This document shows, in pieces, positions 9,176 through 64,000 of a DNA stretch of 64,000 bases. The translations under genes and the position numbers were made by a program. The DNA comes from Obrimoposthia wandeli (lineage: Eukaryota), in assembly GCA_977020255.1 (NCBI GenBank), contig CDROCS010002686.1:248001-312000 (forward strand), in the 5' to 3' direction. Each line of letters opens with the position of its first letter. Within the stretch, counting starts at the first letter, position 1. The notes below the pieces were generated by a model. That model searched no databases. It saw only the letters and a program-made list of their open reading frames with translations, and was not told the DNA's origin.

Positions 9176-11381
9176 CAGTAAAACCTTGCTATACCTGTAT
9201 TTAAGTTAAAGCATACTTTTTTTCTTATATAAGGTCCTTGTTTATAACATAATAAAATAATGTAACAAAAAAATTATTTTTTTATTTAAAAATTTGTTTA
9301 TAAATTTTGAAATAGAAAAATACCTAATGCAGACAGGTAAACAAAAGGACAGAACACTGATTACCGTCAAAAATAAAATAAATAAAAATAGAAACAATAT
9401 GACAAGAAAATCTACACACACAAAACAACTGGCGGATCTCCACAAATACAAACCAGTGTACATTATCCAGGATTATTAAGAACAGACAAGACATTTTTTC
9501 AATGAAGGATATAACCCGTGATACAAAGCTGAATAAAGGGAAATAACCAAGTTTGTAAGAGGTTCTGTTTACATTTTTGCATCTAACAATCTAGCAGCGA
9601 AATCGAAAATCATAAAAGAACATGCTCTTTAATATGGAAAATAGATGGATTTTAAGGCGTTGAATGGATGTTTTGAGAGATTTCAGATAAGGAATAACAT
9701 TAAAAGTTTTAAGATATCAGGTACAGAATCATTATAGCAACTGTAAATGAATGGAAAGAACAGGTATTGCCTCAGTTTCTGGAAGAATACAATGCAGATC
9801 GCTTTGAACGCCAACGAGACAAGGTTATTTTACTAACTATACTTGTCAAAAAATACAGTTTAAAATGGTCTAATAATAAAGATTCAATGAGTAATAAAAA
9901 GATAAGAAAGTTAAAATTTGTTTTTTTGTAATCGTAAAATCACAAAATCCATATTGTTTTCGTATTGTTAAATCTCTTTCAACCGAATATACAAATAATA
10001 GTTCTTCGTGGATGACTATATCAATTTTAATGATTAACTTACTAGATTAAATCAAGAACAGAAAAATCTTTTTGTAAATTGACAATACTTCATGAATAAT
10101 GATTGAAAATTATATTTGGTAAAAGTAATTTTCTCCAATGGGGGCCGCCCCCTGTCCTTTAAAACCATGTATGTGTGTGGAGTGAAATTTCGTGCATGTG
10201 TGTGGAGTGAAATTTAATGTATGTCTCCATTCCACCCAAAGGGGGAAGGAAGGAGGTTACCCCTCACCACATTTTTAAAAAAATTTACTGCGAATCTCAA
10301 AAGTGGTTAGAGAAGACCACGGGAATCCATATTGGCCCCGGCGGCTTATCGCAGACGAGATTTCAAATAATATATTACTACTATTTTTAAGAAAGATTTT
10401 TGATTAATAAATTACTACATGTTAAATATCTATTTATAGGATAAAAAATCGGTCAGATCTATATAATTTAGAGGAGAAAAAAACAAAATACGAGACAAAA
10501 TTATTTTTCAAAATATTTATTAAACATAAAACAATATATTGGCTTCACTCAAAGTCCAAAGAAGCTTCAAAGAAAATTACAGAAGGCTGTTTTAGAACGT
10601 AATAAAAAAATGATGAATGAGGAGGTTGATATAAACGTTTTAGATGAGTTTAATATCAGAGTCGTGGGATACTGTGAGTGGTGTTACAATTAGAAACTGC
10701 ATTATAAAATCCTATAAAAATGATAGTATTTTGAAGTGGTTGAAGATGTTGACTAGAATTCCAGGAAATTCAATTAGGATTGGAAAATAATTCAGATAAA
10801 ATAATCAATCTGAAGACGAAGAGCGCTTTGAAAAGCTCGAGTTTAAAGAACTTTTACAAACCGAGAAAAAGAAAACAGACACAGAAATGCCGGACGATGC
10901 AAACTGATATTTTTGAATTGGAAAAAGTGAAGGTTTTTGAAGCAGAGAAAGCGATAGAAGTTTCAAAACTATTTTTTATCAACAACGAAAGATCAAAAAG
11001 AAAAACATTTGGAGGACTCAATTGAATTTTAAATGAAATGGAATAAAGAAAGGAAGAAATTCGAAGCAGTTTAGTTTGTTTGATTTAAAAAATGAATTAA
11101 TATATTAGTTTATTTTTATTTTTATTACAGTTTTAATATCATGGCATCCACTGATATATATATATATAAAGTTTCTTTAAAATGTGTTTTACTTGAAAAA
11201 TGACTTGGTGAAATTATTCTAATAAATACCAATAATTTATAATGCAATTGATTTAAAAATAAATAAGAATTGATTTAAATTATTTATTAAAGTTTATACT
11301 GAAAATTAAAAAAAAAAAACTTTTTCAGTTATAGCCTGCTTTTTTGTAATTCTAAATTTTACATAATGCGAGGGTTAACTG
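9176..11381 (+). mobile_element. Degenerate Tigger/pogo DNA transposon
   Basis: DFKALNGCFERFQIRNNIKSFKISG (CENP-B-type HTH), NANETRLFY, IDNTS, FKENYRR. TA-CAGTAAAACCTTGC at 9174 and GCGAGGGTTAACTG-TA ending 11383 resemble Tigger TIRs (imperfect pair, boundaries uncertain). Confidence 0.65.
10148..10565 (+). mobile_element. Orphan fragment of the Polinton left end
   Basis: Near-identical by eye to ~12246-12640 (CTGTCCTTTAAAACC..GTGTGGAGTGAAATTT..GAGAAGACCACGGG..GGCTTCACTCAAAGTCCAAAG); lacks the terminal AGTAGG ~35 nt. Confidence 0.9.
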
Positions 11382-12039: not shown

Positions 12040-12208
12040 GTACAACTGTCGATTGACAAGAAAATGTTGTTCTGGACGACCTTGCAAAACCACTGCCAGA
12101 TATGATCGTCATATAATACGAAGTGTTGTTTGTAAGCATAAAATCGCATCTGAAGAAATTGGATCATTTGATTTTAAACGTAAAAAACAAAAATCTGAAA
12201 TGGTTGGG
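12040..12208 (+). mobile_element. Tc1 transposase fossil, 5' part (Polinton target)
   Basis: SGRPCKTTARYDRHIIRSV matches the Tc1 SGRPxKTTxRxDRxIxR motif; ends at the GTTGGG target duplication. Confidence 0.7.
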
Positions 12209-12290
12209 AGTAGGTGGATGTGTCCGGTTTAATCCACACCCCCTCCCCCCTCTGTCCTTTAAAACCGTGCATGTGTGTGGAGTGAAATTT
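12209..12290 (+). repeat. Left terminal inverted repeat
   Basis: Reverse complement of 27057-27159 with a few substitutions and indels. Confidence 0.9.
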
Positions 12291-12594
12291 TATGTATGTC
12301 TCCATTCCACCCAAAGGGGGAAGGAAGGAGGTTACCGCCCCACTACAATTTTTAAAAATTTTACTGCGAATCTCAAAAGTGGTTAGAGAAGACCACGGGT
12401 ATCCATATTGACCCCGGCGGCTTATTGCAGACGAGATTTCAAATAATATATTACTACTATTTTTAAGAAAGATTTTAGATTAATAAATTACTACATGTTA
12501 AATATCTATTTATAGGATAAAAAATCGGTCAAATCTATATAATTTAGAGGAGAAAAAACAAAATACGAGACAAAATTATTTTTCAAAATATTTA

Positions 12595-12999
12595 TTAAAC
12601 ATAAAACAACATATTGGCTTCACTCAAAGTCCAAAGAGGCTGCATTTTCCCGTCATCAGCAAAATATCCATTGAGACGTATTGAGATATTCCATAGTTCT
12701 TCATCTAGAATTGGAGCAATCAAATATCCTAGATCATCTTTAAAATTCAGACTGGGATCAGTTTCAAGCTGGAAACAATTTCCTTCATATACATAATCAG
12801 GAATGTAAAATCCCAAAATATTTTTCAATTGATCAATATCAGATGTTGTTAAAATTTCGATGAGATATTTATTCTCCACTTTTGATATTTTCACAGGATT
12901 CATAACTCGTATAATTTGATGCCTCTTTAATATATTACATAGTTTTCCTTTTGAAATTCTTTCTGGATAATAAAAATTTACTACACATCTCTTATCCAT
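12595..12999 (-). CDS. Polinton ORF-A, 134 aa, paralogue of ORF-B; possible OB-fold ssDNA-binding protein
   Basis: Open from ATG 12999 (MDKRCV); conserved in copy 2; aligns over ~110 aa with ORF-B. The function is inference. Confidence 0.75.
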   Translation of the reverse strand: MDKRCVVNFYYPERISKGKLCNILKRHQIIRVMNPVKISKVENKYLIEILTTSDIDQLKNILGFYIPDYVYEGNCFQLETDPSLNFKDDLGYLIAPILDEELWNISIRLNGYFADDGKMQPLWTLSEANMLFYV

Positions 13000-13146
13000 T
13001 CTAAAATAAGGAAACTGATTAAAAAAACAATGTTTATAAAAAAATACACATAAGATACATATAAGATACAAATATTTAAAAAATAAAACTGATTATTAAA
13101 TGAAAAAAACATAGTAAAACCGATTACAATTTATTACACGCAAAAG

Positions 13147-13600
13147 TTAAAACATAGAAATATGAGCACGTTCAATTTTCCACATAGGCAACTTTGTCCC
13201 CATTTCATCTTTCTTGTAACTATAAAGTCGAATTGTTACAGTCCATTGCTTCTTTTTCGGAAATGCACCAATATCAACATATCTTCCATAGTCATCTAGA
13301 AATGCTTCATCGGGTCCTCGGATATAAAATTCGTTCTTATTGAAAGTAAAATTCGGAACATGCATTTTCAACTTTCTGTTTAAGATATTGAAAATATGGT
13401 TTTTGAATATTTGATAGATAGTAGCTGAACTTTCTTCTTTCAATTGTCACAGGATTTACTAAAGCAATCAGTTGAGCCTTCTTCAAGAATCTGACTTTGT
13501 ATTTGAAATATTGTTTCACTTCTTCATACATATCCTTATCCGATTCTTCAAACATTTCTATATCTTCCTCATCGCTTAATACCCGTTGGCTATCATCCAT
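13147..13600 (-). pseudogene. Polinton ORF-B, consensus 150 aa, 1-nt insertion near 13360
   Basis: Track ORFs 13337-13630 and 13147-13443 are joined by removing one T (GCATGTT vs GCAGTT in copy 2). Confidence 0.8.
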
Positions 13601-13639
13601 CGTTGATAATTGTCTTTGATATGAATGCATTTACTGTGA

Positions 13640-13860
13640 TTTGTCCTCCAATAGCGCATTCTTTTATACTAATTTATAACAAAGACATGAATCTCATTGG
13701 TTAATACAACTAAAGAATTGAATTTGATTGGACTAAATCCATATTAAAAATCAAATTTGATTGGAAGAAATATATCATCCAATTATAATAGGTTTGCAAG
13801 ATAATTACAAGAAACGTGCAATAAAAAAGCAGGTTCAGACATATATAAAGAAGATTTTAT
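13640..13860. promoter_or_regulatory. Divergent Pol II-type promoter region (ORF-B leftward, TBP-like rightward)
   Basis: TATATAAAG at 13842-13850, 30 nt before ATG 13880; minus-strand TATAAAAG at 13661-13668; CCAAT/ATTGG at 13648, 13696, 13727, 13760, 13779. Confidence 0.55.
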
Positions 13861-13879
13861 AGAATACAATTTTAGTCTA

Positions 13880-14376
13880 ATGAAACTCGTAAATATAAAT
13901 TATAAAGGTAGAACAGAAGATGATGTTTCGTACTTACCATTCAATGAATGGAAGCCGAAATAATATGTGGAAAAGTTTGACAATTTCACAGTTGTTATTT
14001 TTCCTACAGGTTAGTTTTTTTATTTTCATATTGAATTCTTTTAGGAAATTGTCGTGTTATGGGATGCAAAATACCAATACTTGGGTTCAATTTACCATTT
14101 AGAATTCGAATCACTGCAATACAATCAATCACGATTTCGGCTAATCTTGGGAAACAGATAAATATTTTTAAAACTACAGAGAAAATGAAAGAAGAATGCA
14201 TGTTTGAACCAAAAATTTTTCCTGCTCTTAGTTATTTAAAGTTTAAACCGCTATGTGTAAATATATTTTCCAGTGGTAAAGTTATGATATTGGGATTGAA
14301 AAATTTTGATTATCCAGACATTGTTGATTTGATTTTAGAAAATATATCTTATTACATCTTGTTATCTTTTCTATAA
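13880..14376 (+). pseudogene. TATA-binding-protein-like gene, 2 exons (13880-14009, 14045-14376), one premature TAA in this copy
   Basis: Spliced product has two TBP repeats: LVNIN...VVIFPTGNCRVMGCK and IQSITISANL...FEPKIFPALSY...VNIFSSGKVMILGLK. 35-nt GTTAGT..TTTTAG intron. TAA at codon 28 is CAA in copy 2. Confidence 0.85.
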
Positions 14377-14404
14377 ACAAACCCGTTTAAACTTATTTTT
14401 TCAA

Positions 14405-14677
14405 ATGAATAATACTATAAATAGAGACAATGAAGTGAATCGTCTTGCCGACGAAATATTTTCGGGAAAAATTAGGGGTAAAGAAATTTTATCAGAATTA
14501 AAAAATAATGATATAACAAGAGATAACATTGAAATATTGGTTAGATCACACGTTATTCGAGAATTTAGAAATCGTACACAAATAAATAAAATTATAGCCA
14601 AATATTCATTAATTAATTTTTGTATTTCATCTACAATAGCTCTAACATTGTACATTTCAATAAGGAAACTTCTATGA
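14405..14677 (+). CDS. 90-aa protein with a C-terminal hydrophobic segment
   Basis: Intact in both copies; ends YSLINFCISSTIALTLYISIRKLL. Confidence 0.7.
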   Translation: MNNTINRDNEVNRLADEIFSGKIRGKEILSELKNNDITRDNIEILVRSHVIREFRNRTQINKIIAKYSLINFCISSTIALTLYISIRKLL

Positions 14678-14714
14678 TAATATAAACAATATTAAAAATG
14701 AAAGAGTATATGCA

Positions 14715-15362
14715 ATGGAGCTAAATAATAATGCTGTATTTCAAATAGTTGGCCCAAGTGGAAGTGGAAAGACACATTTCGTCTGTAAATTGTTGCAAAA
14801 TGAATCTCTTTTCAAATCTAGTTTCAAAAATATTTATTGGTATCATGGTGGAGGAGGGGAAAGCGGGTTAACCAAAACAGAAGTTTGCAAGTTGAAGGGT
14901 ATAAAATTTATTGAAGGATTTGATGCAAATTGGTGTGAAAGATTGAAAAAAGAAGATGTAATAATAATTGATGATTTGTATGAGGAGGCTAACAAGGAAT
15001 CGGACTTTAATAATTTATTTACAAAGATTGCAAGACATCGTGAAGTTACAGTTATATTTATCACTCAAAATCTGTTTCACCAAGGAGGTCACCATAGAAC
15101 AAGAAATCTTAATGTACATTACTTAGTTTTATTTAAAAATCCTAGAGATCAAACAGTTGTTGATTTTGTGGCCAGACAGGCATTTCCTCAAAATAAGAAC
15201 TTTCTAGTTGATTCATTCCACGATGCTGCTAAACAAGCACATGGGTATATATTTATTGACTTTACACAAGCTTGCCCAGATGATTTACGTGTTTTAACAG
15301 ACATATTTAATTCTAAGGGAGTAACTGTTTATAAACAAATAGAGAACAATTATAAAAAATAA
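14715..15362 (+). CDS. Packaging ATPase (A32/FtsK-like)
   Basis: Walker A GPSGSGKT, Walker B IIIDDL, ITQNLFHQG, RTRNLN, LFKNPRD. Confidence 0.95.
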   Translation: MELNNNAVFQIVGPSGSGKTHFVCKLLQNESLFKSSFKNIYWYHGGGGESGLTKTEVCKLKGIKFIEGFDANWCERLKKEDVIIIDDLYEEANKESDFNNLFTKIARHREVTVIFITQNLFHQGGHHRTRNLNVHYLVLFKNPRDQTVVDFVARQAFPQNKNFLVDSFHDAAKQAHGYIFIDFTQACPDDLRVLTDIFNSKGVTVYKQIENNYKK

Positions 15363-15369
15363 ATTTGCA

Positions 15370-15525
15370 ATGCCTTTTACAAAGTTGGTAGTAAAACTTA
15401 AAGTAAAATCTAAGAAATCAAAAAAAAGACTCATTAAGAAAAAAGAAGTGAAAAAATTAATCAAATCTGTAATTAGAAATAAAAAAAACTTAAATGGCTT
15501 CGAATATAAACAATATTTAAATTGA
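15370..15525 (+). CDS. Lysine-rich 51-aa protein (possible DNA-condensing core peptide)
   Basis: MPFTKLVVKLKVKSKKSKKRLIKKKEVKKLIKSVIRNKKNLNGFEYKQYLN; below the ORF-track cutoff; frameshifted in copy 2. Confidence 0.45.
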   Translation: MPFTKLVVKLKVKSKKSKKRLIKKKEVKKLIKSVIRNKKNLNGFEYKQYLN

Positions 15526-15540
15526 ACCTTTTTAATTAAA

Positions 15541-15869
15541 ATGAAGAAAATACAAAGAAGCATACCCTATATTAAAGCTTTAGTCAAAGCCTCTTCGCAT
15601 AAGAGAATGATTATTCTTAAAGCATTTCCATCTTTTGTTGTAGATGATTTATTGGTAATTTTGTATAATATAGTTTTGGGTTGAGTAAAAGTTGGAAATC
15701 GGACAAATATATTAAAGTAATATAGAAAAACTCTTCTAGATATTGCTAATGTAAAAAGTAAAAAAGGAAACGAAATATTATTCTTAAACAGAATTGTAGT
15801 TTCATAGGGGCTGTTATTCCAGTTGTTGCTTCAATTATCAGTAGTATTATAGCTGCGACACGTTCATAA
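15541..15869 (+). pseudogene. Conserved small Polinton virion protein (pX/'gasderminX'-like), consensus 109 codons
   Basis: KRMIILK..VVDDLL..LYNIVLG..YRKTLLDIA..KRNIILKQN(GG)FIGAVIPVVASII. TGA 15682, TAA 15718 and a 1-nt deletion; copy 2 keeps the QNGGF protease-site-like motif. Confidence 0.7.
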
Positions 15870-15897
15870 ACAATTATTTATAAAATCAGTTAAAGAT

Positions 15898-16116
15898 ATG
15901 GGTGCTAACCCTTCTTTACCTAAATTTAAATTGTCTTTCTATTCAAATTGTTGTAATGGAGAAGATATGGTTCAATCCAAAAGATCCAATTGGCTACACA
16001 GGAGTTTCAAAATTAGCAAAAAGAACAAAACAAAATTACAAGAAAACGCAGAAATGGCTAAGCGACCAGCTACCCTACAGTCTGAACAAGCCGATGAGAA
16101 GAAGGTTTCCAACTAG
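15898..16116 (+). CDS. 72-aa ORF overlapping the integrase start, with MGxxxS and CC motifs
   Basis: MGANPSLPKFKLSFYSNCCNG; open in copy 2 as far as visible (MGTNPS). Confidence 0.5.
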   Translation: MGANPSLPKFKLSFYSNCCNGEDMVQSKRSNWLHRSFKISKKNKTKLQENAEMAKRPATLQSEQADEKKVSN

Positions 16117-16983
16117 AGCTTACAAAACCAGCGGTCCTAATAATTTATGGCAAATGGATTTGATGGAGATGATCCCATATTCTTCCATTAATAAGGGATA
16201 CCGATATATTTTAACATGTATTAATGTATTTAGCAGGTTTGCTCGTACAATTCCAGTTAAAGCAAAGTCTTCAATAGCTATGCTTGAAGCCATTAAAGAA
16301 ATATTAAAAGAGGACATTTCACAAAATGTGCAAACTGATTTAGGAAAAAAAATTATAATAAGCAAGTTAAATCTTTATTTAAACAAAATAATATAAATCA
16401 CTACTCTGTGTTTTCACAGTATAAAGCAGCAGTAGTAGAAAGATTTCATCATACTTTAAGAGATCGAATAAAAAAGTATTTCACAAAAGAAGGAAATAAA
16501 AAATGGATCCAAGTTTTACCTAAAATAATACATGCATATAATCATTCGGAACATAGAGGTCTCAAGGGAATGAGACCTGTTGATGTTACTAATAAAAATT
16601 CTATGGATATTTGGATGAACAGGAATAAAAAAGAAAATATTAAAAAAGCTAAATATAAGAAAAACGAATATGTCCGAATTTCGAAAATTAGCTATACTCC
16701 ATTTATTAAAAACTTTGATCAGAATTGGAGCGATGAAATATTTTGTATAAGTAAAATTGATCAAAAGAGTAATCCAATAATGTATACTATTAAAGATGCT
16801 GACAATACTATCGTTCACGGTAAATTTTACGAGCAAGAACTACAAGTAATATCAAATAAACCTAGCGTTTTCCGTATTCAAAAAATATTAAAATCTAAGG
16901 GTTCCGGTAAACATAAACAATACTATGTTAAATGGCATGGTTATTCAGATCCAACTTGGATATCAGCATCTAATATAATATGA
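15956..16983 (+). pseudogene. Retroviral-type (rve) DDE integrase with C-terminal chromodomain; frameshift at ~16350
   Basis: WQMDL, QTDLG, KAAVVERF catalytic motifs; FRIQKILKSKG..QYYVKWHGY chromodomain. Confidence 0.95.
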
Positions 16984-17998
16984 AGTCTATGTATATGGTT
17001 TTATCTAGTAACGGATGTCCGAAGACTCAACCAGATAATTACGCTAGTAGCTTTATTATCGATTGGGAAAATCCTATAAATCTCCAAGGAGAATGGGAAG
17101 AGGATTTTACAGAATTTTCCCTTTATTATTCTCCAATTACTATCAGAAAAAACTAACATATTTCGTTTACAAAAGAAGTTGATCATGAAAAATCAATTGA
17201 AGTTGTGATTGGGTTTGATAGTAAAGGAAAATTCTATTACAATTGTATAGATAAAGAAGTGAAAGTAATATATGAAAAAGACAAATTATATTTGGATATG
17301 ATAGAGAAGCTCTTCAATTCGGTTTTGACAGTGGTCATGTACTAGGTATGAAAAGATCTGATATAGCCTCATCTAAATAGTTTAAAAATGTTCCCGATAG
17401 AGTAACAAAAGTGTTTTTAGTTGAAACGAGACCAAAGTATGTAGTGGAACTGAAAATGTTTTCAAAATATTATAAATTAGATAGTGAAGTGAATTTCTGT
17501 AAATTAATACAGAAGGAATGTAGTGAATATTTCGATAAATGTGTAACATTAAAAAATGGTAAAATAACGTTTACAGTAAAAAGCAATTTAATACGAGTTT
17601 TATTTGATGATAAACTCGCTAAAAACCTTGGTTTAAACAGAAATACCTTTGAAACCCATACAATAAAAACCATAAAAGCTAAAAATAAGACAAAACTTTT
17701 AAATATTGTTAATCATTTATATATTTATACTAATTTAATAGAACCAACGCTTGTAGGAGGACTGCGAGTTCCAAGTTTGAGAACAATATGGATATCTAAA
17801 AATGAAACTAGAGATGGGGACGCTGTCGGTATGTGTATAGATCAACCAATGTATCTTCCAGTTTCTCTCTTTTCTATAAACAATATTGAAGTAAATATTA
17901 GAGATTATTCCGGACAACTAATAGATTTCACGTACGGGGCCAAGACAAGTTTAACAATACATTTAAGAAAACAAAATGGCGAATCCAGCAATAATTGA
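16980..17998 (+). pseudogene. Minor capsid protein (penton)
   Basis: MVLSSNG..PDNYASSF..NPINLQGEWE at the N-terminus; LYIYTNLIEPTLVG..LRTI..MYLPV..IEVNIRDYSGQLIDF..LTIHLR at the C-terminus; internal stops; ATGA overlap with the integrase stop. Confidence 0.85.
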
Positions 17999-18353
17999 AG
18001 CTTATAGTCAAAGTCAACAAGGTGGAGAATTACCATATTTTGTTGGTAAACAATATAGATCTGGCTGGCTTAGAACATTAGGTAGATTTGCCTTTCCCCT
18101 TTTAAAGAGACTCGGGTGATTTATATCAAAATTAGGAAAGGACTACCTTTCATCTAAGGACAATAAACTAATACCAACTTTTAAGAAGCATGCGCTTGAT
18201 GAACTTGATAATGTTTTACCTGAAGTTGCTAATTTGATTAGAAAACGTAAATGAAATAAAAGCCAAGGATGTAGTGGATTTAAACGTAAATAGAAGCAAA
18301 AAATTAATATAAACAAACGTAATAAAGTTGAAGGAACAATATTTGCAAAATGA
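17976..18353 (+). pseudogene. pVII-like core protein
   Basis: YSQSQQGGELPYFVGKQY.SGWLRTLGRFAFPLLK pattern; three in-frame stops; stop overlaps the major capsid ATG. Confidence 0.75.
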
Positions 18354-19093
18354 GTTGCGCCAAAACTGAATTGTGTATTTTTGATAAACAACTTCCACAA
18401 GTAGTTGTAGATAATGCTTCCTTTGAAGAAATATTTCTAGTTAACTCAGTTTCAGGAACCACTTTAACCGATTTAGAATTTAATATTAATGGTTCCAATA
18501 GCGAGTATTTAGATTTGAATGATACTTTGCTTTATGTTCAAATAAAAGTATTAAATCGGGATGGTACTAATTTAGATGAAAATGCAGATGTAACACCTGT
18601 AAATTATCTCTTTAATTCTTTATTTAGTGATGCCATTGTTACTCTTAATAATGTCAAAATTGAAGGTGGAAATTCTTCCTATGCTCATAAAGCTTTGATT
18701 GAAAGTCTTTTAAATTATAGCACTGATACTTAAAATACCAATTTGGCAACCATTGGTTATGATTAAACTGTCGCAACTCGCAAAGAATGGATTGCGGGTT
18801 CTAAAGCTTACGAAATGTCTTTGAGATTGAATTTCTTTGAACAACTGAAATATTTAATTCCCGGTGTTAATGTACATCTTCGTTTGAAACGTAATAAATA
18901 TAATTTTTCTTTGATAAGCACAGACGTTCTAAAACCTAGACTTGATATTTTGGATGCAAAATTGTATGTCCGAAGAGTTAAAACCGAGCAATCAGTTTTA
19001 ATGGCACATAATATAGGAATGGAAAAAAACAATGCTTGTTATCCTATTAGAAAAACTAAACGATTAGTGTGTTATAAAAATAAATATTTTTAA
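18350..19093 (+). pseudogene. Major capsid protein (double jelly-roll), 3'-truncated
   Basis: CAKTELCIF, LEFNING..YLDLNDTLL, PVNYLFNSLFS, LLNYSTD, GVNVHLRLKR, AHN..NACYPIR; stops at 18731 and 18764; similarity ends after ~240 codons. Confidence 0.9.
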
Positions 19094-19333
19094 TGTTTTA
19101 TTTTGAATAATTTTTTTCAATCCCTAAAAATATAAGGATAATAAATAATAAAAGACATAAGACGATATTTTTTTTAATACATTTATTAAAAACAACATCA
19201 CAATGAGATCTGTCAGCAAAGATAAGGTCCATCCTAAAAAATGTTTCGAAATAACAAAAAGTTAGAGTCAAGGTGCCATAGGGATCTAAAATTTTAAAAA
19301 ACTAATCTAAAAAAATCAAAAAATGAAAACCGT

Positions 19334-21966
19334 TTAAATTCGGAAGTGTCCATAAGCCAGGCTAGTGTTATTTTCTACCCAAAAGCGCTTGTCGTCATAA
19401 CTACTCAAAGCGATTTTGGTTGATTTATGGGAATACAGTTGATGGGCTCTTGAAATAAATCTAGTTTGCTCAACGCTTTCAATACACCGAGTATCATAAA
19501 CTTTCCGGTAAGCCTCATGTGTAAGATTGTTTCTTCCCACACCCTTTGCTCTCATTGAACATGTATTATTAGATGCATGTAAACTGTAGCATTTAGGGCG
19601 TAGGAAAATACAATCATCATACGTAGCCTGTCCCTCGCTTTCATCCTTAAATTTCCCGATAATATCCTTTAAACTCATAGAGTGTAGAGGATGGTTAGCG
19701 GGATATTTATGGGTATCTAATAAGTTGTCCCTAAACATTGCCGGTAATAATTGATTATTTAAACTAACATTTTTACATTCTAAAAAGAAAGAGTCAGTGT
19801 CCCCAGCCGCGAGTTTGATCTCACAATTGAATTCTCGTCGATATTTCTCCAATTCTATGTATTGAAGCTCGTACATTCTGAGTTTAGAAATGTCTAAAAC
19901 CGTTTGACCTATATAACTCGGTCGATCGAGACAAATACTCTGTTTTCCTAATAACACTGCTACCAAGTCATCTGCAATTGTAAAACTACGCTTGAAGTTG
20001 TACTTGCTAGTATATGTTATTAGTTTACGCTCATCATTGCAAAACCGTAGACAAATACGTTTCCGCAAGTCCTCTACAGTTTTTCCAAAGAGGCTATTAC
20101 TTTTTAACTTGTAAAAATCCCGATCGAATTTGCTAGTGGCCAGATTACGTTTTCTAAAATTCTTCTCAATATAGTCTTTAAACACAAAGTTTTGACTGAA
20201 TCTTATAGCACGATGAATTCGAGTAACTTTCGCTCCCAACTTTAAGTAGAATTGAAGAAGCCGCCAATGCACAACATAATTCAATTTGTCTTCATGGGTT
20301 AACAATAATTTCTTAACCTTTGAATTAGGTGGGCATTGATGAACAGGCGCTACTGGAAGATCATCTTTATCATGCACATTGGAAGGGATTGTTAAGTCAA
20401 CCTCAACCAAATAGCCGATGTCTGATGAAACTGTATCGACAGTAGCCAAATCTGTCATCAACTTATTCAACTCTTCCTCATCATAAACCCACTTAAAGTT
20501 GGCATGAGGTAGAGGTTGAGTAAGCGCCCACCCATACAAATTATTAATATCGATGTACAGATGTTTGTTGACAAAAGTCATTCCACCACGTATACCATAA
20601 TCATACATTTGATACATTGCGGGTTCTTGCAGTAACTCGATATTAATTTTAAGAGTTTTTTTATTGCTGTTGCCCATGAAAGACCAGGTAAACTAAAGAA
20701 ATGCATGGGATCTAGCCCATCTTCTGCTAAAGACTTTACACGAAAGGACTCAAAAACATCAGCTAAAAGATAAATGTATAATTTCATATAATAAAGCATA
20801 TATTCTAAAAGATTTCGAAAATTATTCGCCCAAAATGTACGGGCCTCATTATAGTAGACTTACACTTTCAAATTCAGTTATGGGTGGGATTTCTGTGATA
20901 TTTTCTAAATCTGTAAAGGTTTTCGCAAATTTATACGGAAAAATCCCCTTATCATTAACCGAAGCTGGGAACACTGACTGTGTGATAGGCCATGCATTTA
21001 AAGATGCCGTTAAATTTTTTAAAGACCCCCTCAAAAACTGCAGAGAATCTATGAATCTTAAACTGCAGAATTCAGTATATGCAGTTAAAGATAAATATTT
21101 CTCTGAAGTTTGAGGTATACATGAAATTTCCCAAGAGCTTAATGTACCCAACGCATATTTAAGTATATGATGCAAATCATATCCTTTGAGGTTATGAAAC
21201 ACGATGGGAATTCGTGGTTTTTTAGGGAGACGACGGCCAAGGTTACAGAGGTTGCACGCTGCTCCCAAGTATCGCCCCATAACATGATCGTGATCTCTGA
21301 CTAACTTAGACTGGGTTCCACACAAATAACATAATCTACAAGAATTAAAATTAATCCAGTCTACGCCTGTCATGATCATTGCTTGATGAGCATTAAGATC
21401 ATACCACGGTTTGACAATTGTTGTTCCTAATTCTTCTAATTTTAACATAAAATCTAAAATACAATTTGGACCGGAAAATTTATGATACTGTGTAATATTG
21501 GGGCCTAAGAATAGTAGTCCTGCCGAAGCCGGTAGGTGAATACTCTCATACTGGTCGTGCAATGCTAAAATTGACTCAAAATCGGCATACACCCTGAATT
21601 CCACGGGTATGCATTTTGCCCAATCCCTGAATTTTAAATCCTTATCCTTAGGCATGCTATATAGCGTATTGTCATCAGGATTCAGTGAACATAATGTCAG
21701 ATGTTTGCTGTAAGAGAGCTCGGATCGGAATCCATGCAAACATCTATGTCACCACTTACACCTTGTCCTAACCGTAGGCTCCATTATCTAAATTTAGAAG
21801 ACGATCTAAACTGGGAATTGCAGCATATGGGTATATTTTATTCTGTTCAAGCAAAATTAAGTTGACCTGAGTCCCCTCATTTTTGCTCCTATAAATTACA
21901 TCTACAAAAGGATTTTTAAATATTTCTTCATCTGTTACATTAACTGGGATATCAGTATTATATTTA
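19334..21966 (-). pseudogene. Protein-primed DNA polymerase B, exonuclease and polymerase portion
   Basis: RVYADFES, RDHDH..GRYLG..CNL, HNLKGYD, FIDSLQF, KGIFPY, LLADVFE, YIDINNLYG, KLKSNSLFGKT, GDTDSF, FLRPKCYS; several stops, frameshifts and deletions. Confidence 0.95.
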
Positions 21967-22026
21967 TTTTTTTATTTATCAAACATTTATTAATGTGAAC
22001 GCAATCAATTTCTCAAAGGCCCCATT

Positions 22027-22557
22027 CTACTTTACGTGGGTCCATGTCTCAATATGCTGCTGGTCCTCGGTAGCAGTAACAGTAACTGCTTGGGGTCTCG
22101 GTTTCGTCATTGGAACTTTGAGTAGGTCCGCGTACGTTTTCAGTACTCTTACGTCATCGCCGGGTACAGTTTTGGGCCCCTCGGCAGTCTCGATTGTAGC
22201 GGGGCCACCTTTTCGGCCATTACCCGTAACCGACCGTAGGTCGGTTTTCGGTTACGATTTCTCCTCCTGTCCATGTCGAAGTTTCGAACTCTGACCACCA
22301 CTATTCAAATCTCCCAACAAATCTGTTCGATTGTTGATAAAAGGTCTCTTTTCGGCATACGAGTCTGCTGCTTCCTTTAGACTAATGTTGTTCTTTGCCA
22401 TTACAAATTTGTCGATAATACCAGACAGTATCTTTGCGCACTCCTCGTTGACATCATAGTTTCGCAGTAACCCAAAAATATCGTCTTGGGCCCCCTGCAG
22501 GAGGTTATAATTACTCCCGTTGTTTACCTGCGCTTCATTATTTCTCTTCCTGACCAT
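22027..22557 (-). pseudogene. Second ORF of the insert, 176 codons with one internal TAA at 22252-22254
   Basis: MVRKRNNEAQ...EEKS*PKTDLRS...DQQHIETWTHVK*; same frame on both sides of the stop. Confidence 0.5.
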
Positions 22558-22605
22558 GTCGAAGTTTTCAGCTCTTATTATTTTTATTCAGATATTAATA
22601 AACAA

Positions 22606-22808
22606 TTTTTTTTTTTTTTTTTTTTTTGAATCAAAAGGCTCATTTTCGGCACACGAATCTGCTGTTGTTTGTTGGTTGTTGGTTGTTGGTTGGTGTTTGG
22701 TGGTTGTGGGTTGGTGTTTGGTGGTTGGTGGTTGTTGGTTGTTTTTTGTTGGTTGTTGGTTGTTGTTGTTGGTTGTTGGTTTTTGTTGTTGTAGTTTTGT
22801 TTGTTTTT
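22606..22808. repeat. T22 tract plus (GTT/GGTT)n low-complexity repeat
   Basis: 22 consecutive T at 22606-22627; GTTGGTTGTT-type repeats at ~22665-22808. Confidence 0.9.
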
Positions 22809-23225
22809 TTATTTTACGTAGGTCCAGGTCTCAATCTTCTCCAGCTCCTCGGCTGACAACTTATCCAGGATCCCAGTTGTATGACTCGAGAATTTAGCCC
22901 ACGAGGCCGCTGTATGTTCGATGGTTTTCAGGGTTAGTCGGATCTTGATATCCTTGATCTCCTTTGCTTTAAAACCAGCATTTGCAAAGATCCGGTTATT
23001 GATTTCAGGCCAGAAGCCGAGAGTCCCGATCCTTAGCGCGTAGAGTTGCACGAGTTTTTCTGGGTGGCGGGTCTTTAGCATTTCAACGAGCTCCGCGTAT
23101 TTGGACATAGTTTCGGTGAGCCTCAGATCAAATGACATGTCAGAGTCAAACGGGATCTTGATCTCTATCAGCATCACCTTATAGTCAGTCTCGATCGTTA
23201 TGTCTGGTCGTGGTCTGCAGCTGTT
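22809..23225 (-). CDS. Restriction-like (PD-(D/E)xK) endonuclease domain of a non-LTR retrotransposon, in frame with the pPolB N-terminus
   Basis: CRPRPDITIETDYKVMLIEIKIPFDSD...KYAELVEMLK..VQLYALRIGTLGFW...; ends KIETWTYVK*. Confidence 0.8.
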   Translation of the reverse strand, partial: NSCRPRPDITIETDYKVMLIEIKIPFDSDMSFDLRLTETMSKYAELVEMLKTRHPEKLVQLYALRIGTLGFWPEINNRIFANAGFKAKEIKDIKIRLTLKTIEHTAASWAKFSSHTTGILDKLSAEELEKIETWTYVK

Positions 23226-24957
23226 TTTACTCAAGTTATTAAGATGTTCAAATCTTGATATCGCAGTTAATTTAACAGGAAAATCTATTCCATGATACTG
23301 CAATTCATTTAAAAAAGGGGTATATTTACTGACACGCTCTCTATGTTCAGTAATTACACCCCTTTTGAGGATGGCCAACACGCTATACAGAAAGCAAAGT
23401 TTATCACTGTTTTGTATGTTAACAATGGAACGTGAAAGTTGAAGAGATCTAGGTGAAGGAATGTATGAACTCCCTGAAAGATATATCATGTCAGTGAACT
23501 TTGTTAGGACAAAGCTAACATCATGAATTCTAACTAGAGTCCATCCACTACTTAACTCGCTATAATTAGCAATTTTTTCATCTAGGTTTCTTCCAATTTC
23601 AGTTACAAAATTATCATAGAAAACAGTTGCTTTATGTGAAATTACCCAAGTTTTAGTTTCCTCATTGACATTTTTAAACTGCACTGTTGCGCAAAATTGA
23701 ACCTTAGCCTGTCCTAATTTAGTCACTTCTGATTTTAAAAGATTTTCAATATTTGAATTTACACCTACGTTTAATAAAATTTCATTTCCTAATGGCACCT
23801 TAACTATAACATATTTATTATTTAGGTGATACTCTATAGTAGCACCGTTTTCTCTACGTTTTTTTGGTGGGACCTTATTAAGAAATTGGCCTCGCCTCTT
23901 TCTTCCTATAGTCGCTGACAAACCTCCCCCTAATTGAACGGGAAGACAACTAGTTATATTAATCGCAGCTGAGGTGGAATGTGCTGCTTTTGGTGATGCT
24001 GCCGATGTTGAGGCAATTGCAACTGAGGTGGAAGGTGCTGCTATTGGACATGCTGCCGATGTTGAGGCAATCGCAGCTGTAGTAGTAGATGCTGCTGTAA
24101 TAGATGCTGCTGTAGTAGATGCTGCTGTAGTAGATACTGCTGTAGTAGATGCTACCGCATATTACAGTAGATGCTGCATTTGAAGTAGGAGTAGCTGAGG
24201 TAGGAGCTGACCTTGCCGATGAAGAAGCGGCTGTTGTAAAGGTTGATGCTGCTGAAATTTTTTTTTTAAAATATTATTACCTCTAAGACGTGCTAAAATC
24301 GATGTAGGCACTCGTGATGGGGGAGGCATAGCTGTCGTAGCGGATTACGGCTGTATCACGGTATTTCCTGAATAAAAATTTTAAAAAATATATATATAAT
24401 TACAATTTATAAAAAGAATCTAAAAAATAATAATAAAAATACCTAATGAAGGCAACTGGAGCTGGAATGAAGTCCTCTTCATTTATGGAATCCATCCAGC
24501 TGTCGTCCGTTATCTCGACGAAATCGGATTCCTCGATGGTCTCCAACCAAGAGTTATCGCTCCACTGAGGCTGCTCCATCTCGAAATCTGACTGGGTGAT
24601 ATTTTCTATCCAGTCATTGTTTGAGAATTGGGTTGCTGGCGCCATCTCCTCAAAATCTGTTTGGGATATGTCATTCATCCACTCATTGTTAGTCATTTGA
24701 GTGGATGGTGCAGCAGAATCAGGATCCGGGAGAGAAGGACCAATGGCAGGACCGTAAACGGGTTGAATCACTGCAACTGGAATTGGAGCAGGTGCTGGAG
24801 CGTCCTGCGAATCGCGCACTAATTGCACAATATCCCTCTTCTTGTTGTTGGCCGTGAAACAGGATAGATGAGCTCGATGTTCCCTCTTTCTTAAGTCCCC
24901 TTTCTTCTAATTTATTCTGATCTTCGTTACCAAACTTTGCAATTTAATGAATTCCAT
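23226..24957 (-). pseudogene. pPolB 5' region: N-terminal extension (acidic repeats, Ser/Thr/Ala linker, QLGGG site) and terminal-protein-like region; putative introns 24442-24368 and 24280-24252
   Basis: ATG 24957 in frame with ORF 24828-24400; SGSSYIPSP..IVNIQNSDKLCFLYSVLA..ERVSKY..GIDFPV..FEHLN is the canonical pPolB N-terminal block; GT-AG short introns; stops and frameshifts. Confidence 0.7.
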
Positions 24958-25039
24958 TTTTTAATTATGAAGAGGTTAATAAATTTGAACCTATATATAT
25001 AAATTTAAGATATTTTTAATCCAATCACAGGCAATTACA

Positions 25040-26986
25040 TTATATGAAATTCATTTTCGGCTTCTTCGGTTGGTTTGTAGCAATTGTCCTTCCCTCAGGG
25101 TTTGGCAATATTTGCTGCAACGTTTTGGGAGGAGGTGCAGCCGATGTTGATGGCCCCGACATAGAAGCAGTAGCCTTCCTCTTCCGTGGAGCTTTCTTCT
25201 GTTTCTCCTCCTTCTCACGCTGAAGCTGGCGTGAGACGGCATCCTGTTGCCTAGCGAATCTGGAAGCATTGCCGGTGTATCCAGTTCCGCCAGGAATTCG
25301 TCCAATCCAGCTTCATCCCAGGTCCTCTTTAAGTTCTGGCTGGTTGTGGGACGAGGAGAAGCCGGTAATGTCTCCTGCAGGCGTCGTTGACTTGATAGCG
25401 GACTAATCTCGATCGGTGAGACTGGGATCCTCTCGTATAGAATTGTACCGTCGTCCACTGGAGATGGGGGAATCTCCTGCCGTTCAATCACCGCCTCAGA
25501 ATAATGGCCAATTGAGGTGCTACATTTTTTTGAGCGCCTCGTCTTCTTCACATCTGCTCGCTTCGTCCGTTTCTTGGGAAAAGGAGTAATTTCTCCCCAA
25601 GCCTCCTCAATTATCCAGACAGGTTCCTGCAAAGAAAACATTAATAAAATTTTTAATAAAATTCATTTATATAAAAAATATTTAAATATCTAAAATTTTA
25701 CCTCAATAATCTGATACGGAATTTTTTCCTGCCGCTCTATCGTTACTTCGGTCGATTTGAGCAGACAAGATTTCGCCTTTCTAAGACGCCTCGTCCTCCG
25801 TACAGCAGCCTGCCTCGTTCGCTTCTGCGGGAAAGGATAAATTTTGTCCCATTTCTCCTCAGTTAATTGTATTGGTCCCTGACCCAAAAAACATAAATAA
25901 AATTTAAAAATATAAATAATTTACCTCGATGACGGGCAGGTTAGCCTGTTTCGCCAACTTGGCCTTCTTCCGATGGACCGTGTGGGTTTTGACCCGATGG
26001 CGTCGAGGTTTCTTAACCGCCTCTTGTTTCCTATCGCCGGGTAGTCTGAGAGTTGCCTCCTCCCAAATTTCCTCCACCAATTCGGCTTCCTATGTGAATA
26101 ATTAAAATAATTAACTAATTTATAATAATATACCTCAAATTTAGCCGGAGTCGGTAGGTATCGCTGATCACTCCTGGGATCATCCTGGCTATATTGACTC
26201 GCCAAGTACTGCGGTTCAATCAGCCTCTCCACCGTAGTCACTGACGGTGCCAAATCCAGTTAAAGTTTCTAAAAATGAAAATAAAAAACATTTTAAATAA
26301 ATTAATAGACTAACCTCATTCGTCGCCTTTATTCTCCTAACAGGACGTATCGGAGATTGCGGTCTTTTGAACGAATCAGGCACCATATTGTCGGCTATCG
26401 GAGTTGGAGTTGTAGAGGGAGTGACACCATCCAAATCGTCGGTGAACAGGCGCCACTCGTCCTCGTCCAATTCTGCCACCATCGAATCGTTGGCTCCTGG
26501 GGCTCCGATACTTGGCTGTATCCATTCGTCGATGAATGGAGTCAAGTCCTCCTCACCATCCGACGGAACGTCATCGGTGAATAGCTCCTCGTCTGAGTCT
26601 GGTGCGAGTACTATCTCCGGCTGAGACAGCGGGATCAATTTCCAGGGGCATTTGATTGCTGCCTCAAAATTCTGGAAGAGATTGGATCTCCTTGCTGCTA
26701 CTGCTGAAGTTGCCGGACGATTGGGTTTTGTGTTTTGCCTGGGAGTATAGTCTTCCCAATTCTCAATCGAATCCTGACTAGTCAGATCGATATATTGGGA
26801 TCTCTGTATACCACCTGTCACGCTCATTGGTTCTTCTCTCGGAGTTGAGCTGGCCAATGGCGGTTCTTCTAGCAATTTTTTCGCGACCCTGTATATGTGT
26901 TGCTCGTCAAACCACCGCTGGCCCGGAGGGCACGCTTTGACCCACTAAACGGCCTCCCAGAACCTTCCTCACATTTTTGGGAGCAT
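25040..26986 (-). pseudogene. Five-exon Polinton gene (26986-26315, 26268-26134, 26089-25925, 25878-25702, 25626-25040) encoding a disordered protein with basic repeats
   Basis: Four GT-AG introns (46, 44, 46, 75 nt), all phase 0; exons 1-4 are 672, 135, 165 and 177 nt (multiples of 3); three premature stops and one frameshift. Confidence 0.8.
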
Positions 26987-27056
26987 TATGAGATTTTAAA
27001 TTTTAAAGGGTGTTATATGGGGTTAATTAGTTTTTGAGTGTTGGAAAGGGGGGTAG

Positions 27057-27159
27057 AAAATTTCACTCCACATACATGCACGAAATTTCACTCCACACAC
27101 ATACACGGTTTTAAAAGACAGAGGGGGTGTGTGGATTAGACTGGACACATCCACTTACT
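27057..27159 (-). repeat. Right terminal inverted repeat
   Basis: Reverse complement AGTAAGTGGATGTGTCCAGTCTAATCCACAC..CTCTGTCTTTTAAAACCGTG..GTGGAGTGAAATTT. Confidence 0.9.
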
Positions 27160-27165
27160 GTTGGG

Positions 27166-35750: not shown

Positions 35751-36141
35751 TATGTAAGACCTAGAAATTTGGTTACGTATTCGAGTGACATCAAAAATAT
35801 TTATTGAACATTTAAAATGATTTCACCACACAAATAAAAATATATGTGTGGTAGTCTGTAAATTTCTGTTACTATCAATAACTTTTACTATTATATTCTT
35901 AAAAATAAATATTTTAAAGTAACTTTGAAGTAATTATTATACATTATGATATTTTTTTGGTAATTCGACTTCAAGAAAATTGCAAAAAGTTTACTTTCAT
36001 AAAATATTAAATTATCTAGCTTTGAAAGGGTAACCCCCATATGTAATCCATTAATTGTGATTCGGCCAATTGTCTAATTACACAAGGATTTATCAACGAA
36101 AATTTGTTTCTAGGTCATTTATGACAGATTCGTTGATGCAG

Positions 36142-39100
36142 TAGTCAGACCGGCAACAACTCTGGTGTAGGGACAGATCCCCGCAGTATCATTGCGGGCA
36201 TAAATGATGCCGGCTGCTACGATACCTATTATTGCGATGTGGATAGTCTAGCGGGAGCACAGCACAGCGTGATGGTGGCCCTTCTCATAGTTGCCTTGAT
36301 TGGACTGGCCAGCAACATATATTGTCTTGCCAAGATGTCCATTGGACACAACTGGCGCTTCTTCTTCCGAGCCAACCAATTTGGGCCGCACTTGGCTCTT
36401 CTCATTATCTGTGACTGTGGGCAGTTGTTGTTTGCACTTTTTCTCCAGGTAAGCTTTGTCACACGACTCACAGTCACTGTCACATGGTCAAACAAATATA
36501 TAATAACATGATCATACAGTCACATGGCCACAAAGTCATATGGTTACATTTTAGCATGGTCACACAGTCACATAGCCATACAGTAGCATGGCCATATAAT
36601 CACATGGGCACACAGTCACGTAGCCATACAGTAGCATGGCCATACAATCACATGGTCACAGTCACGTAGCCATACAGTAGCATGGCCATACAATCACATG
36701 GTCACACAGTCACAACCATACAGTAGCATGGCCACACAATCACATGGTCACACAGTCACAACCATACAGTAGCATGGCCATACAATCACATGGGCACACA
36801 GTCACGTAGCCATACAGTAGCATGGTCACTGATTCACATAGCCACCCAGTCCCATAACCATACAGTAGCATGGCCACCCATGGTAACAGTCACATGGCCA
36901 TACAGTTAAATGATCACACAATCACATAGCCACCCAGTCACATATAGCCATACAGTAGCATGGCCACCCATGGTAACAGTCACATGGCCATACAGTAAAA
37001 TGATCACACAATCACATAGCCACCCAGTCACATAGCCATACAGTAGCATGGCCACACGATCACATGGCCACACTGTCACATAACCATACTGTAGCATGGG
37101 CACACAATCACATGGTCACACTGTCACATGGTAACACTGTCACATGGCCATACAGGTACATGATCACACTGTCACATGGTCACACTGTCACATAACCATA
37201 CTGTAGCATGGGTACACAATCACATGGTCACACAGTCTCGTAGCCATACAGTAGATTGGCCACACGATCACATGGTAACATGGCCACATGATCACACAGT
37301 CACATGATCACACAGCCACACGGTAACACAATCACATGGTCACACAGTAGCATGGGCACACAATCACATGGTCACAGTCACATAACCATACAGTAGCATG
37401 GGCACACAGTCACATGGTCACACAGTCACATGATCACACAGTAACATGATCACACAGTCACATGGTCACACACGATCACATGGTCACACGATCACATATG
37501 GTAACACTGTCACATGGGCACACAATCACATGGTCACACAGTCACATAACCATACAGTAGCATGGGCACACAATCACATGGTAACACAATCACATGGTCA
37601 CACAGTCACGTAGCCTCTCTATTCAGGTTTTACCTCCGGTTGTGGCTGGCCATAGACACAAGGATCAGCTTGTCGTCTACCAACGTTACACCTTCCGCCT
37701 AGTACCGGTGTTGCTACCCTTGTTGGATCTATGCTGTCTTCTCGTCAGCTGGCTTCTAATAGCCATGCTCGTGCAAAGGAGCAACACCACACGACACTGG
37801 CTCCTTCTAGAAGTGAGTGGCATGTTCATTTAGTTTATATAATAATCGTATAAAACTCCATCATATTTACGTCATGTCCCCATTAGTTTGTTTGTCCATT
37901 CGTGTGAGTTCATTATCTGTATAGACGAAGATCCAATTTCAATAACTTCTTTTGAATATTACCATATATGAAAATATTCAATTAATTCAGACGTCCAACT
38001 AAAATTGTGTGTGATTTAATTATGAATTCATTGAATTTCCTTCTAAAGGAAATGTGCAAATTTTTGTCTCTAAATCTGTCTACAAATATGCAGTCAGTAA
38101 TGGTCACATGGCCGGACGTGGCGGTGTGCGTCTGTAATCCAACTACTAGGAGGCCGGGCGCATCAACTAAAATCAGTGAAATATGATTAAAGATGTGAAG
38201 TTCTATAATTTTGTTTTGTATAATAATTACATATATTTTTCAAAAAAATCATTCATTATAATTTGTAAAATAAAATTTTTAGTTTTTGTTAAATTGAAAA
38301 CTTCATTTAACACCAATAAAGTTAATCCACATTAAAGGTTTTAAAATGTAAAACAGATAACACAATTTCATAAGCTTGTAAAAATAATTAACACATTCAA
38401 AATGAAAGTAAGATAAAACTAACTGAAAACCTCTCATTAGTAGAAACAATAATTAGATGAATAATACTAAAGTGAAAGTAAATGCATGATTTCTTTTTAC
38501 GGAACATAATAACAATAATATAGTTAATATAGCGTCTATATATGATTTATTACTCATAAGCACTTCCTGTTTTCGATTATTTTTCGTCTTATTTTCTGAA
38601 TAGTAAAGTCTTCAAATGATTCTTGACATTTTCAACATTGTTACAGTTTCTTATATCCATCGGTTTATGGTCGTAAACATTTGGATAATAAATTTCAAAT
38701 ATGCCATAACTCTGTTTGTTATTTGATAATCTATTAATCAATTTGCATTCGTCATCGTTGCTCCTAAGATGCATATACACGCTCACTGCATCAGGCTCAA
38801 GAACATCATATATATATTTGGGCTTTTGTGAGAGAATACATCTTTTGTAATAAGCCGGATTTTGAATAATAATTTCGCCATAATAGTCCACAAATCCAAT
38901 CAAAATAAACCGGAATTAGAATTCCAAGATTTTCGCAAATTAGTCTAATACAACACATTAATAATACATTACTGACTGCATATTTGTAGACAGATTTATA
39001 GACAAAAATTAGCACATTTCTTTTAGAAGGAAATTCAATGAATTCGTAATTAAATCACACACACTTTTAGTTGGACGTCTGAATTAATTGAATATTTTCG

Positions 39101-61815: not shown

Positions 61816-62316
61816 ATGAAACTCGCAAATATGAATTATAAAGGTAGAATAGAAGATGATGTTTTGTACTTACCATTCAATGAATGGAAGCCGAGACAAT
61901 ATGTGAAAAAGTTTGACAATTTCACAGTTGTTATTTTTCCTACAGGTTAGTTTTTTATTTTATTTTCACATTGAATTCTTTTAGGAAATTGTCGTGTTAT
62001 GGGATGCAAAATACCAATGCTTGAGTTCCAATTACCAATTGGATTTCGAATCACTGCAATACAATCAATCACAATTTCGGCTAATCTTGGGAAACAGATA
62101 AATCTTTTTAAAACTGCAGAGAAAATGAAAGAAGAATGCATGTTTGAACCAGAAATTTTTCCTGCTCTCAGTTATTTGAAGTTTAAACCGCTATGTCTAA
62201 ATATATTTTCCAGTGGTAAAGTTATGATATTGGGGTTGAAAAACTTTGATTATCCAGACATTGTTGATTTGATTTTAGAAAATATATCTTATTACATCTT
62301 GTTATCTTTTCTATAA
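61816..62316 (+). CDS. TBP-like protein, intact, 153 aa, exons 61816-61945 and 61985-62316
   Basis: No stop after splicing the 39-nt GTTAGT..TTTTAG intron; two TBP repeats. Confidence 0.85.
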
Positions 62317-63837: not shown

Positions 63838-64000
63838 ATGGGTACTAACCCTTCTTTACCTAAATTTAAATTGTCTTTCTATTCAAATTGTTGTAATGGA
63901 GAAGATATGGTTCAATCCAAAAGATCCAATTGGCTACACAGGAGTTTCAAAATTAGCAAAAAGAACAAAACAAAATTACAAGAAAACGCAGAAATGGCTA
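63838..64000 (+). CDS. MGxxxS/CC microprotein start (63838) overlapping the integrase start (63896), copy 2, partial
   Basis: MGTNPSLPKFKLSFYSNCCNG and MEKIWFNPKDPIG frames both open to the window end. Confidence 0.6.
   Translation, partial: MGTNPSLPKFKLSFYSNCCNGEDMVQSKRSNWLHRSFKISKKNKTKLQENAEMA

Follow-up and report, generated by a model that had tools for sequence, protein, structure and literature searches.

A predicted five-exon gene with duplicated modules beside the terminal repeat of a decayed Maverick/Polinton element in Obrimoposthia wandeli

The window analysed, that is, the whole stretch of 64,000 nt taken from Obrimoposthia wandeli (GCA_977020255.1, contig CDROCS010002686.1, positions 248,001 to 312,000), harbours a Maverick/Polinton element, whose features are collected in Table 1 together with those of a predicted five-exon gene near its right end. 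The virus-like host element postulated by the original prediction was thereby identified, as terminal inverted repeats, a 6-bp target-site duplication and a polymerase were all found. In particular, the element has the AG...CT type of ends (AGTAG at 12209, TTACT at 27159), and its right terminal inverted repeat also matches positions 10148-10215 (94% over 68 nt). Its genes include those for a TBP-like protein, a packaging ATPase (PF04665, E 1e-6), a protein-primed polymerase and an rve integrase with a chromodomain (PF00385), whose PF00665 match (E 2e-6) did not reach the curated cut-off, and capsid-like ORFs are also present. The two capsid-like ORFs, which we take to encode the major and the minor capsid protein, had no Pfam match and were 35-60% identical to intact ORFs of two metagenomic relatives with the same gene order as the element (L002 and L005). 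Compared with the intact L002 and L005 proteins, the TBP-like, integrase and polymerase genes and the two capsid-like ones are broken by stops or frameshifts, the larger capsid-like ORF spanning only about residues 6-261 of 426, while the ATPase gene was intact. No adenain-like protease was found in the window, where the L002 ORF presumed to encode one had no match below E 0.44; the same loss that truncated the capsid gene of this copy probably removed it.

Table 1. Features of the window discussed in the text (exons and introns of the five-exon gene are predictions)
Feature	Position	Strand	Description
Maverick/Polinton element	12209-27159	.	14,951 bp, ends 5'-AGTAG...TTACT-3', decayed copy
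Left target-site duplication	12203-12208	+	GTTGGG, 6 bp
Right target-site duplication	27160-27165	+	GTTGGG, 6 bp
Right terminal inverted repeat	27058-27159	-	85% over 91 nt to 12209-12299
Exon 1	26315-26986	-	224 codons, net charge -15, Pro- and Trp/Phe-rich, predicted mostly disordered
Intron 1	26269-26314	-	46 nt, GT-AG, 13% GC, phase 0
Exon 2	26134-26268	-	45 codons, no module copy
Intron 2	26090-26133	-	44 nt, GT-AG, 11% GC, phase 0
Exon 3	25925-26089	-	55 codons, putative module copy 1, diverged, with EExW ahead of an Arg/Lys tract
Intron 3	25879-25924	-	46 nt, GT-AG, 15% GC, phase 0
Exon 4	25702-25878	-	59 codons, module copy 2
Intron 4	25627-25701	-	75 nt, GT-AG, 11% GC, phase 0; read-through gives two stops
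Exon 5	25040-25626	-	First ~55 codons form module copy 3; a Ser/Pro-rich part, a brief acidic segment and a basic tail follow
Next gene or polymerase leader	24443-24957	-	Four tandem acidic Trp repeats (W-x3-I-x3-DF), one stop near start
Protein-primed family B DNA polymerase region	19334-24161	-	PF03175 (E 8e-15, 2e-8), PF02945; broken
TBP-like gene	13880-14376 and 61816-62316	+	PF00352, E 1e-10
TBP-like gene intron (internal control)	14010-14044	+	35 nt, AT-rich, GT-AG
Host mitochondrial ribosomal protein gene MRP-L27	1872-2380	-	PF09809, E 4e-8; AT-rich intron of 37 or 51 nt

Regarding the polymerase, which is presumably of the Beta adintovirus or group 1 class, 468 relatives were found among 3,734 candidates, the best of them at 50-58%; by sequence, there was no match in the PDB, and scans of viral contigs and prokaryote genomes with the polymerase and the ATPase returned nothing. 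The sole viral contig with a terminal-repeat word (L081) carried no gene of the element. The polymerase gene was found to be interrupted by an insert of ~1.3 kb (~21950-23233, minus strand) in which one fragment presumably stems from a non-LTR retrotransposon, namely from its restriction-like endonuclease end; the insert also contains a poly(A) run, a tract rich in CAA and one more ORF of unknown kind (22252-22587). Moreover, a second member of the family starts at 60132 and runs off the window at 64000 (93% over 3.9 kb; over 3.8 kb, 190 substitutions and 20 gaps). The left end of the element recurs as a separate copy 2.1 kb upstream (10133-10569), and remains of a further polymerase gene of this kind, degraded and incomplete, appear at 467-1097 on the plus strand. 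Elsewhere in the window, a long tandem array with a 16-nt period was observed (36457-37635), beside which GC-rich exon-like ORFs at 36137, 41167 and 44192 may be part of one host membrane-protein gene.

The five-exon gene has the right terminal repeat on one side and the polymerase region on the other, shares the polymerase strand, and its first ATG lies 173 nt from the end of the element, next to the terminal repeat as had been predicted. The exons are separated by four AT-rich segments (11-15% GC vs. 46-55% in exons), all of which run from GT to AG in phase 0 with GAG directly before the donor, so that the introns originally described agree with the sequence in length, phase and donor context. 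When each segment was shuffled together with 6 nt of flank, GTR/YAG edges arose by chance with probabilities of 0.051, 0.071, 0.108 and 0.058, jointly ~2e-5 in this post hoc test. Moreover, a leave-one-out codon-position model, trained on the remaining segments, preferred the frame set by the junctions in all seven segments, with a positive score in six of them; the first 162 nt of exon 1 had a weak coding signal (-6.0), yet this frame was the best of the three. An automatic scan returned three of the four introns, together with two overlapping plus-strand GT-AG candidates. The four AT-rich segments are thus very probably spliced introns. The repeated GAG before the donors, which had been noted at the outset, is present at all four, but it is less striking than it appears, because AG|GT is the local rule at the six firm donors of the element (6/6) and introns 2-4, being located at matching module boundaries, are not independent. 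Furthermore, the lengths of exons 2, 3 and 4 are multiples of three, so the in-frame skipping proposed at the outset would be possible.

The gene had been described as built by tandem duplication, each of exons 3-5 starting one copy of a module, and the peptides quoted for these modules were correct. Between exon 4 and the beginning of exon 5, identity is 43% (E 2e-12), a score reached by none of 2,000 shuffles, and 24 of 55 residues are identical, 14 of them through different codons, with a dN of 0.48 and a dS of 1.83 over 55 codons (dN/dS ~0.26). As judged by these comparisons, exons 4 and 5 are old duplicates that would have been preserved under protein-level selection. The similarity of exon 3 to the modules was weak at the protein level (E 4e-4; 7 and 2 of 2,000 shuffles) and not significant at the DNA level (54 and 71 of 500 shuffles), while exon 2 scored as background (1,448-1,968 of 2,000 shuffles) and exon 1 gave no significant match to the module profile (E 0.1). 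The duplication therefore stood strongly for exon 4 against exon 5 and weakly for exon 3, and would account for three exons, not five, as neither exon 1 nor exon 2 is a module copy. Introns 2, 3 and 4 have their acceptors at the module starts, and IE is the end of exon 3 as well as of exon 4, which fits a repeated unit made of exon tail, intron and module; such a unit would bring the GAG donor along too. A duplication of exon plus intron that includes exon 3 is probable on these grounds. The introns themselves are mutually dissimilar (0/15 pairs significant after correction; best pair, 62 of 1,500 shuffles), which fits the age of the duplication, and a duplication of the introns themselves would be no more than putative in this gene. 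Lacking similar pairs, they do not derive from an introner family, an origin that was ruled out. No report of tandem exon-plus-intron duplication in Maverick genes was found in a literature search limited to openly available papers.

An open spliced frame that could yield the modular protein originally proposed was not found in this copy. Three in-frame stops appear in the predicted spliced frame (26971 and 26947 in exon 1, and 26262 at the third codon of exon 2), and the coding frame shifts within exon 5 near 25270-25250 (tail log-likelihoods of -28.5, -13.8 and +16.3). Exon 5 has a stop at 25053 in one frame and at 25042-25040 in the tail frame, so position 25040, which had been given as the gene end, belongs to the stop of the other exon 5 frame. 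No fifth AT-rich intron was found at the frame change, where the local GC content is 40-66%. Alternative splice sites bypassing the exon 2 stop, sought by eye, gave other stops or weak sites and were rejected. In simulations of 2.5% random substitution, the exons gained 2.3 stops on average, and at least three in 39% of the runs; therefore, three stops fit ordinary neutral decay. Because of these stops and the frame change, this copy of the gene is a pseudogene and unable to make the five-exon protein, in line with the decay of the other genes of the element.

The exon 1 product had been characterized as acidic and Pro-rich with a Trp-rich N-terminus. Its acidity and its richness in Pro, Trp and Phe (7 Trp and 8 Phe) were confirmed, but the stops at 26971 and 26947 fall within that N-terminus, which includes the weakly coding first 162 nt. 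The modules carry basic tracts of +7 to +8 per 20 residues, and a bipartite NLS pattern was found in all three, in agreement with the NLS-like tracts predicted. In exon 5, six SP/TP sites occur in the first 126 codons and a basic tail follows, while the overall charge of the protein is near neutral. AlphaFold modelled the module (exon 4) as a lone long helix (residues 22-51, pLDDT ~66-80; overall pLDDT 66, pTM 0.32) and exon 1 mostly as coil (pLDDT 50), in a single-sequence model whose low confidence is not proof of disorder.

Searches with the parts of the gene retrieved no homologue, and a second copy of it was not seen. Exon 1 (210 aa) had no match among 1.84 billion representatives, and none in the ESM Atlas or in viral contigs; the first 126 codons of exon 5 had none among longer proteins (716 candidates), proteins of similar length (7) or the ESM Atlas. 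For the module, 351 pattern matches in metagenome contigs and 126 in viral contigs left none confirmed, and the PDB gave none. DUF2735 was the only Pfam result for the gene (E 0.05, below the cut-off), and 0/7 proteins matched in PHROGs, the database that, with local comparisons, made up the search for exon 2. Against the 80 related loci, a single antisense match was found, the closest loci ending within ~1.3 kb upstream of the polymerase, short of the position of the gene; this concerned the exon 5 tail (tblastn, E 0.003, within the polymerase of L010) and was dismissed as chance. Among sequencing runs, five were listed as containing the sequence, none of those listed being from RNA, and a marine metagenome share of 0.06 says nothing about habitat. 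The motifs LxCxE, CR1 and CxxC had no match in any of six segments, and a PIP motif was likewise not found in the gene segments. Since no search gave a homologue, function is read from composition. Nuclear regulators typically combine acidic-aromatic disordered regions with basic tracts, and an early gene could well lie on the polymerase strand beside the terminal repeat; a regulator role of the intact protein would be quite possible, if short of probable.

The next gene downstream, which may instead be a leader of the polymerase, is preceded by ATTGG and TATA-like motifs at ~25021-24995, starts with an ATG at 24957 and is followed by a 75-nt GT-AG intron (24442-24368); it had no family match in Pfam or PHROGs. 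A further intron of 29-32 nt possibly starts at 24280, also after GAG. Words of the ATTGG/CCAAT type were seen to cluster at 13648-13779, between the divergent left-end and TBP-like genes, and at 25021, and GATTGG occurs at like places in 3/5 relatives checked (L017, L022 and L026, upstream of the polymerase), which is a descriptive count.

Introns also appear elsewhere in the element and its relatives. The TBP-like gene, present in 10 of the 80 related loci, contains an intron that served as an internal control. In the second copy of the gene, this intron (from 61946) is 39 nt long, a difference of 4 nt, and its left flank is identical at 57 of 60 positions. It interrupts a motif that runs unbroken in L002 and L005, and was therefore gained or lost within the lineage. 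Moreover, the first 470 nt of L008 comprise three 66-nt exons and four GT-AG introns of 46-50 nt ahead of a polymerase frame of 1,139 codons. One exon pair matches in 53 of 70 columns and one intron pair out of six in 39 of 50, neither score being reached in 2,000 shuffles. Read from its sequence, L008 holds a recent exon-plus-intron tandem duplication in a predicted spliced polymerase leader, in frame with the polymerase, so that such duplication would occur in this lineage and in the same part of the element. Upstream of the polymerase, AT-rich GT-AG candidates of 40-50 nt were also noted in L005, L022 and L026. Left-end accessory ORFs were observed in L002 (12317 onward and 13477-13987) and at the distal end of L005, two of them with tandem peptide repeats, and one such ORF, at the end of L002, presumably encodes a ubiquitin-conjugating enzyme.

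The best overall explanation, which we hold to be moderately probable, is a spliced Maverick accessory gene with duplicated modules that encoded a disordered nuclear regulator or adaptor. In its position between right repeat and polymerase region, the gene would be transcribed inward from a putative promoter in or beside the terminal repeat, and the host spliceosome would remove its four short AT-rich introns. Two ancient rounds of tandem duplication of a unit of exon plus intron would have produced the three copies of a module of ~55 residues, which phase 0 introns would have kept in frame. The intact ancestor most likely encoded a disordered nuclear protein of ~580 residues, with an acidic-aromatic front part of the kind found in activation domains, three basic modules that may have imported the protein into the nucleus and/or bound nucleic acid or chromatin, and a basic C-terminal tail rich in Ser and Pro. 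Such a protein was most likely an early regulator or adaptor for the element, and the present copy, decayed since its insertion, is unable to make it.

The main rival, in itself unlikely, is that the gene is host cargo, namely a captured host gene or exons with their own introns in a GC-rich zone beside the terminal repeat. The composition of the exons (GC 46-55%, GC3 47-64%) is close to that of candidate host exons in the window (48-54%, GC3 54-64%) and differs more from that of the core genes of the element (GC 27-38%, GC3 17-35%). Moreover, the host MRP-L27 gene likewise has a short AT-rich intron, and the ORF at the end of L002 presumably encodes a ubiquitin-conjugating enzyme. Regions of this kind have been described by Widen et al. 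(10.1101/2022.07.12.499685). However, protein searches, outside which the host genome lay, gave no cellular homologue, and the same intron style is found in the next gene and in the polymerase leaders of relatives, while the TBP-like gene is taken to have gained one such intron, so the lineage of the element appears to make these introns itself.

An improbable alternative is that the protein condensed DNA as a core particle protein, its Arg/Lys helices coating the genome as adenovirus core proteins do. The three basic tracts, modelled as a long helix, and the capsid-like and packaging genes retained by the lineage agree with such a role; nevertheless, the near-neutral overall charge, the large acidic exon 1, the distance of the gene, on the polymerase strand, from the structural block and an apparent lack of the conservation expected of a core protein argue against it. 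Highly improbable is that the exons form the far upstream part of the polymerase transcript, as a long spliced leader and no separate gene. They share the strand of the polymerase, the leader of L008 is spliced, duplicated and in frame, and the downstream gene is also predicted to be spliced, but exon 5 stops in both frames (at 25053 and at 25042), AT-rich GT-AG segments begin only past the stop (two candidates, at 25038 and 25028), and the promoter-like motifs and new ATG of the next gene come after it. Finally, that the AT-rich segments are spacers or later insertions between unrelated short ORFs has a nearly negligible probability, for although AT-rich DNA is common in the window (22-47% GC) and the scan also returned the two plus-strand candidates, the edge test, the frame test and the register of the modules speak for introns, the module starts of exons 3-5 lack start codons, and the TBP-like gene supplies a control intron.

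Beyond the spliced accessory gene favoured here, a widespread TBP-carrying Maverick lineage might use host splicing as a tool, gaining tiny introns even in conserved genes and growing regulators and polymerase leaders by tandem duplication of symmetric exon-plus-intron units; this broader idea is speculative and rather unlikely. If it were true, exon skipping would set the number of basic modules, and hence the valency of a viral nuclear regulator, and evolution of the exon-shuffling type would operate in a virus-sized genome.

As for known systems, adenovirus E1A, baculovirus IE1 and herpesvirus VP16 are acidic viral transactivators, of which E1A is spliced and lies near the genome end. The five-exon protein resembles them in joining an acidic-aromatic part to a basic nuclear-targeting region, a likeness of composition only, but it has no sequence or structural match to them. 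Adintovirus Oncoid genes, presumed regulators on the basis of short motifs, are located upstream of PolB according to Starrett et al. (PMC8502044). The five-exon gene is also upstream of the polymerase gene; however, it has none of the defining LxCxE, CR1 or CxxC motifs and by motif would not be an Oncoid, and the main text of PMC8502044 never uses 'splic'. In the vertebrate Mavericks of PMC8097293, accessory regions with variable ORFs flank the core modules and 96% of copies are degraded, a picture similar to the present one, and the 6-bp length of the target-site duplication and the AGT type of the ends are shared as well. In contrast, no introns were reported there in the genes of intact vertebrate elements, while the present lineage differs in the predicted introns of an accessory gene, of the region upstream of the polymerase and of the TBP-like gene. 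With core genes reported there as intronless, ORF-based annotation would split or miss genes of this layout. Maverick-like elements can carry introners, as shown in PMC11957031, but the introns of the five-exon gene are unlike those, having no common repeat family, and the accessible text of a preprint on nematode Polintons (10.1101/2023.08.22.554363) leaves spliceosomal introns unmentioned.

The closest parallel concerns the nematode Mavericks, for which Widen et al. (10.1101/2022.07.12.499685) describe a GC-rich, poorly conserved and intron-bearing cargo region beside the terminal repeat. High GC content, introns and adjacency to the terminal repeat were all found in the five-exon gene, and in both cases the core genes are AT-rich. 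However, the nematode cargo genes wasp and krma are folded enzymes with many homologues placed between the repeat and the integrase, whereas the five-exon gene is an orphan, probably disordered, located between the repeat and the polymerase and with exons carrying tandem modules. The gene thus behaves as a spliced accessory or cargo gene of a fairly ordinary sort and represents no new system, because intron-bearing genes beside Maverick ends have already been described, the copy at hand is a pseudogene, and composition is the basis of its proposed function. Its interest lies in one Maverick lineage with short, predicted spliceosomal introns in several places and duplicated exon-plus-intron units, old here and recent in L008; such introns would imply transcription in the host nucleus and are relevant to the annotation of these elements.
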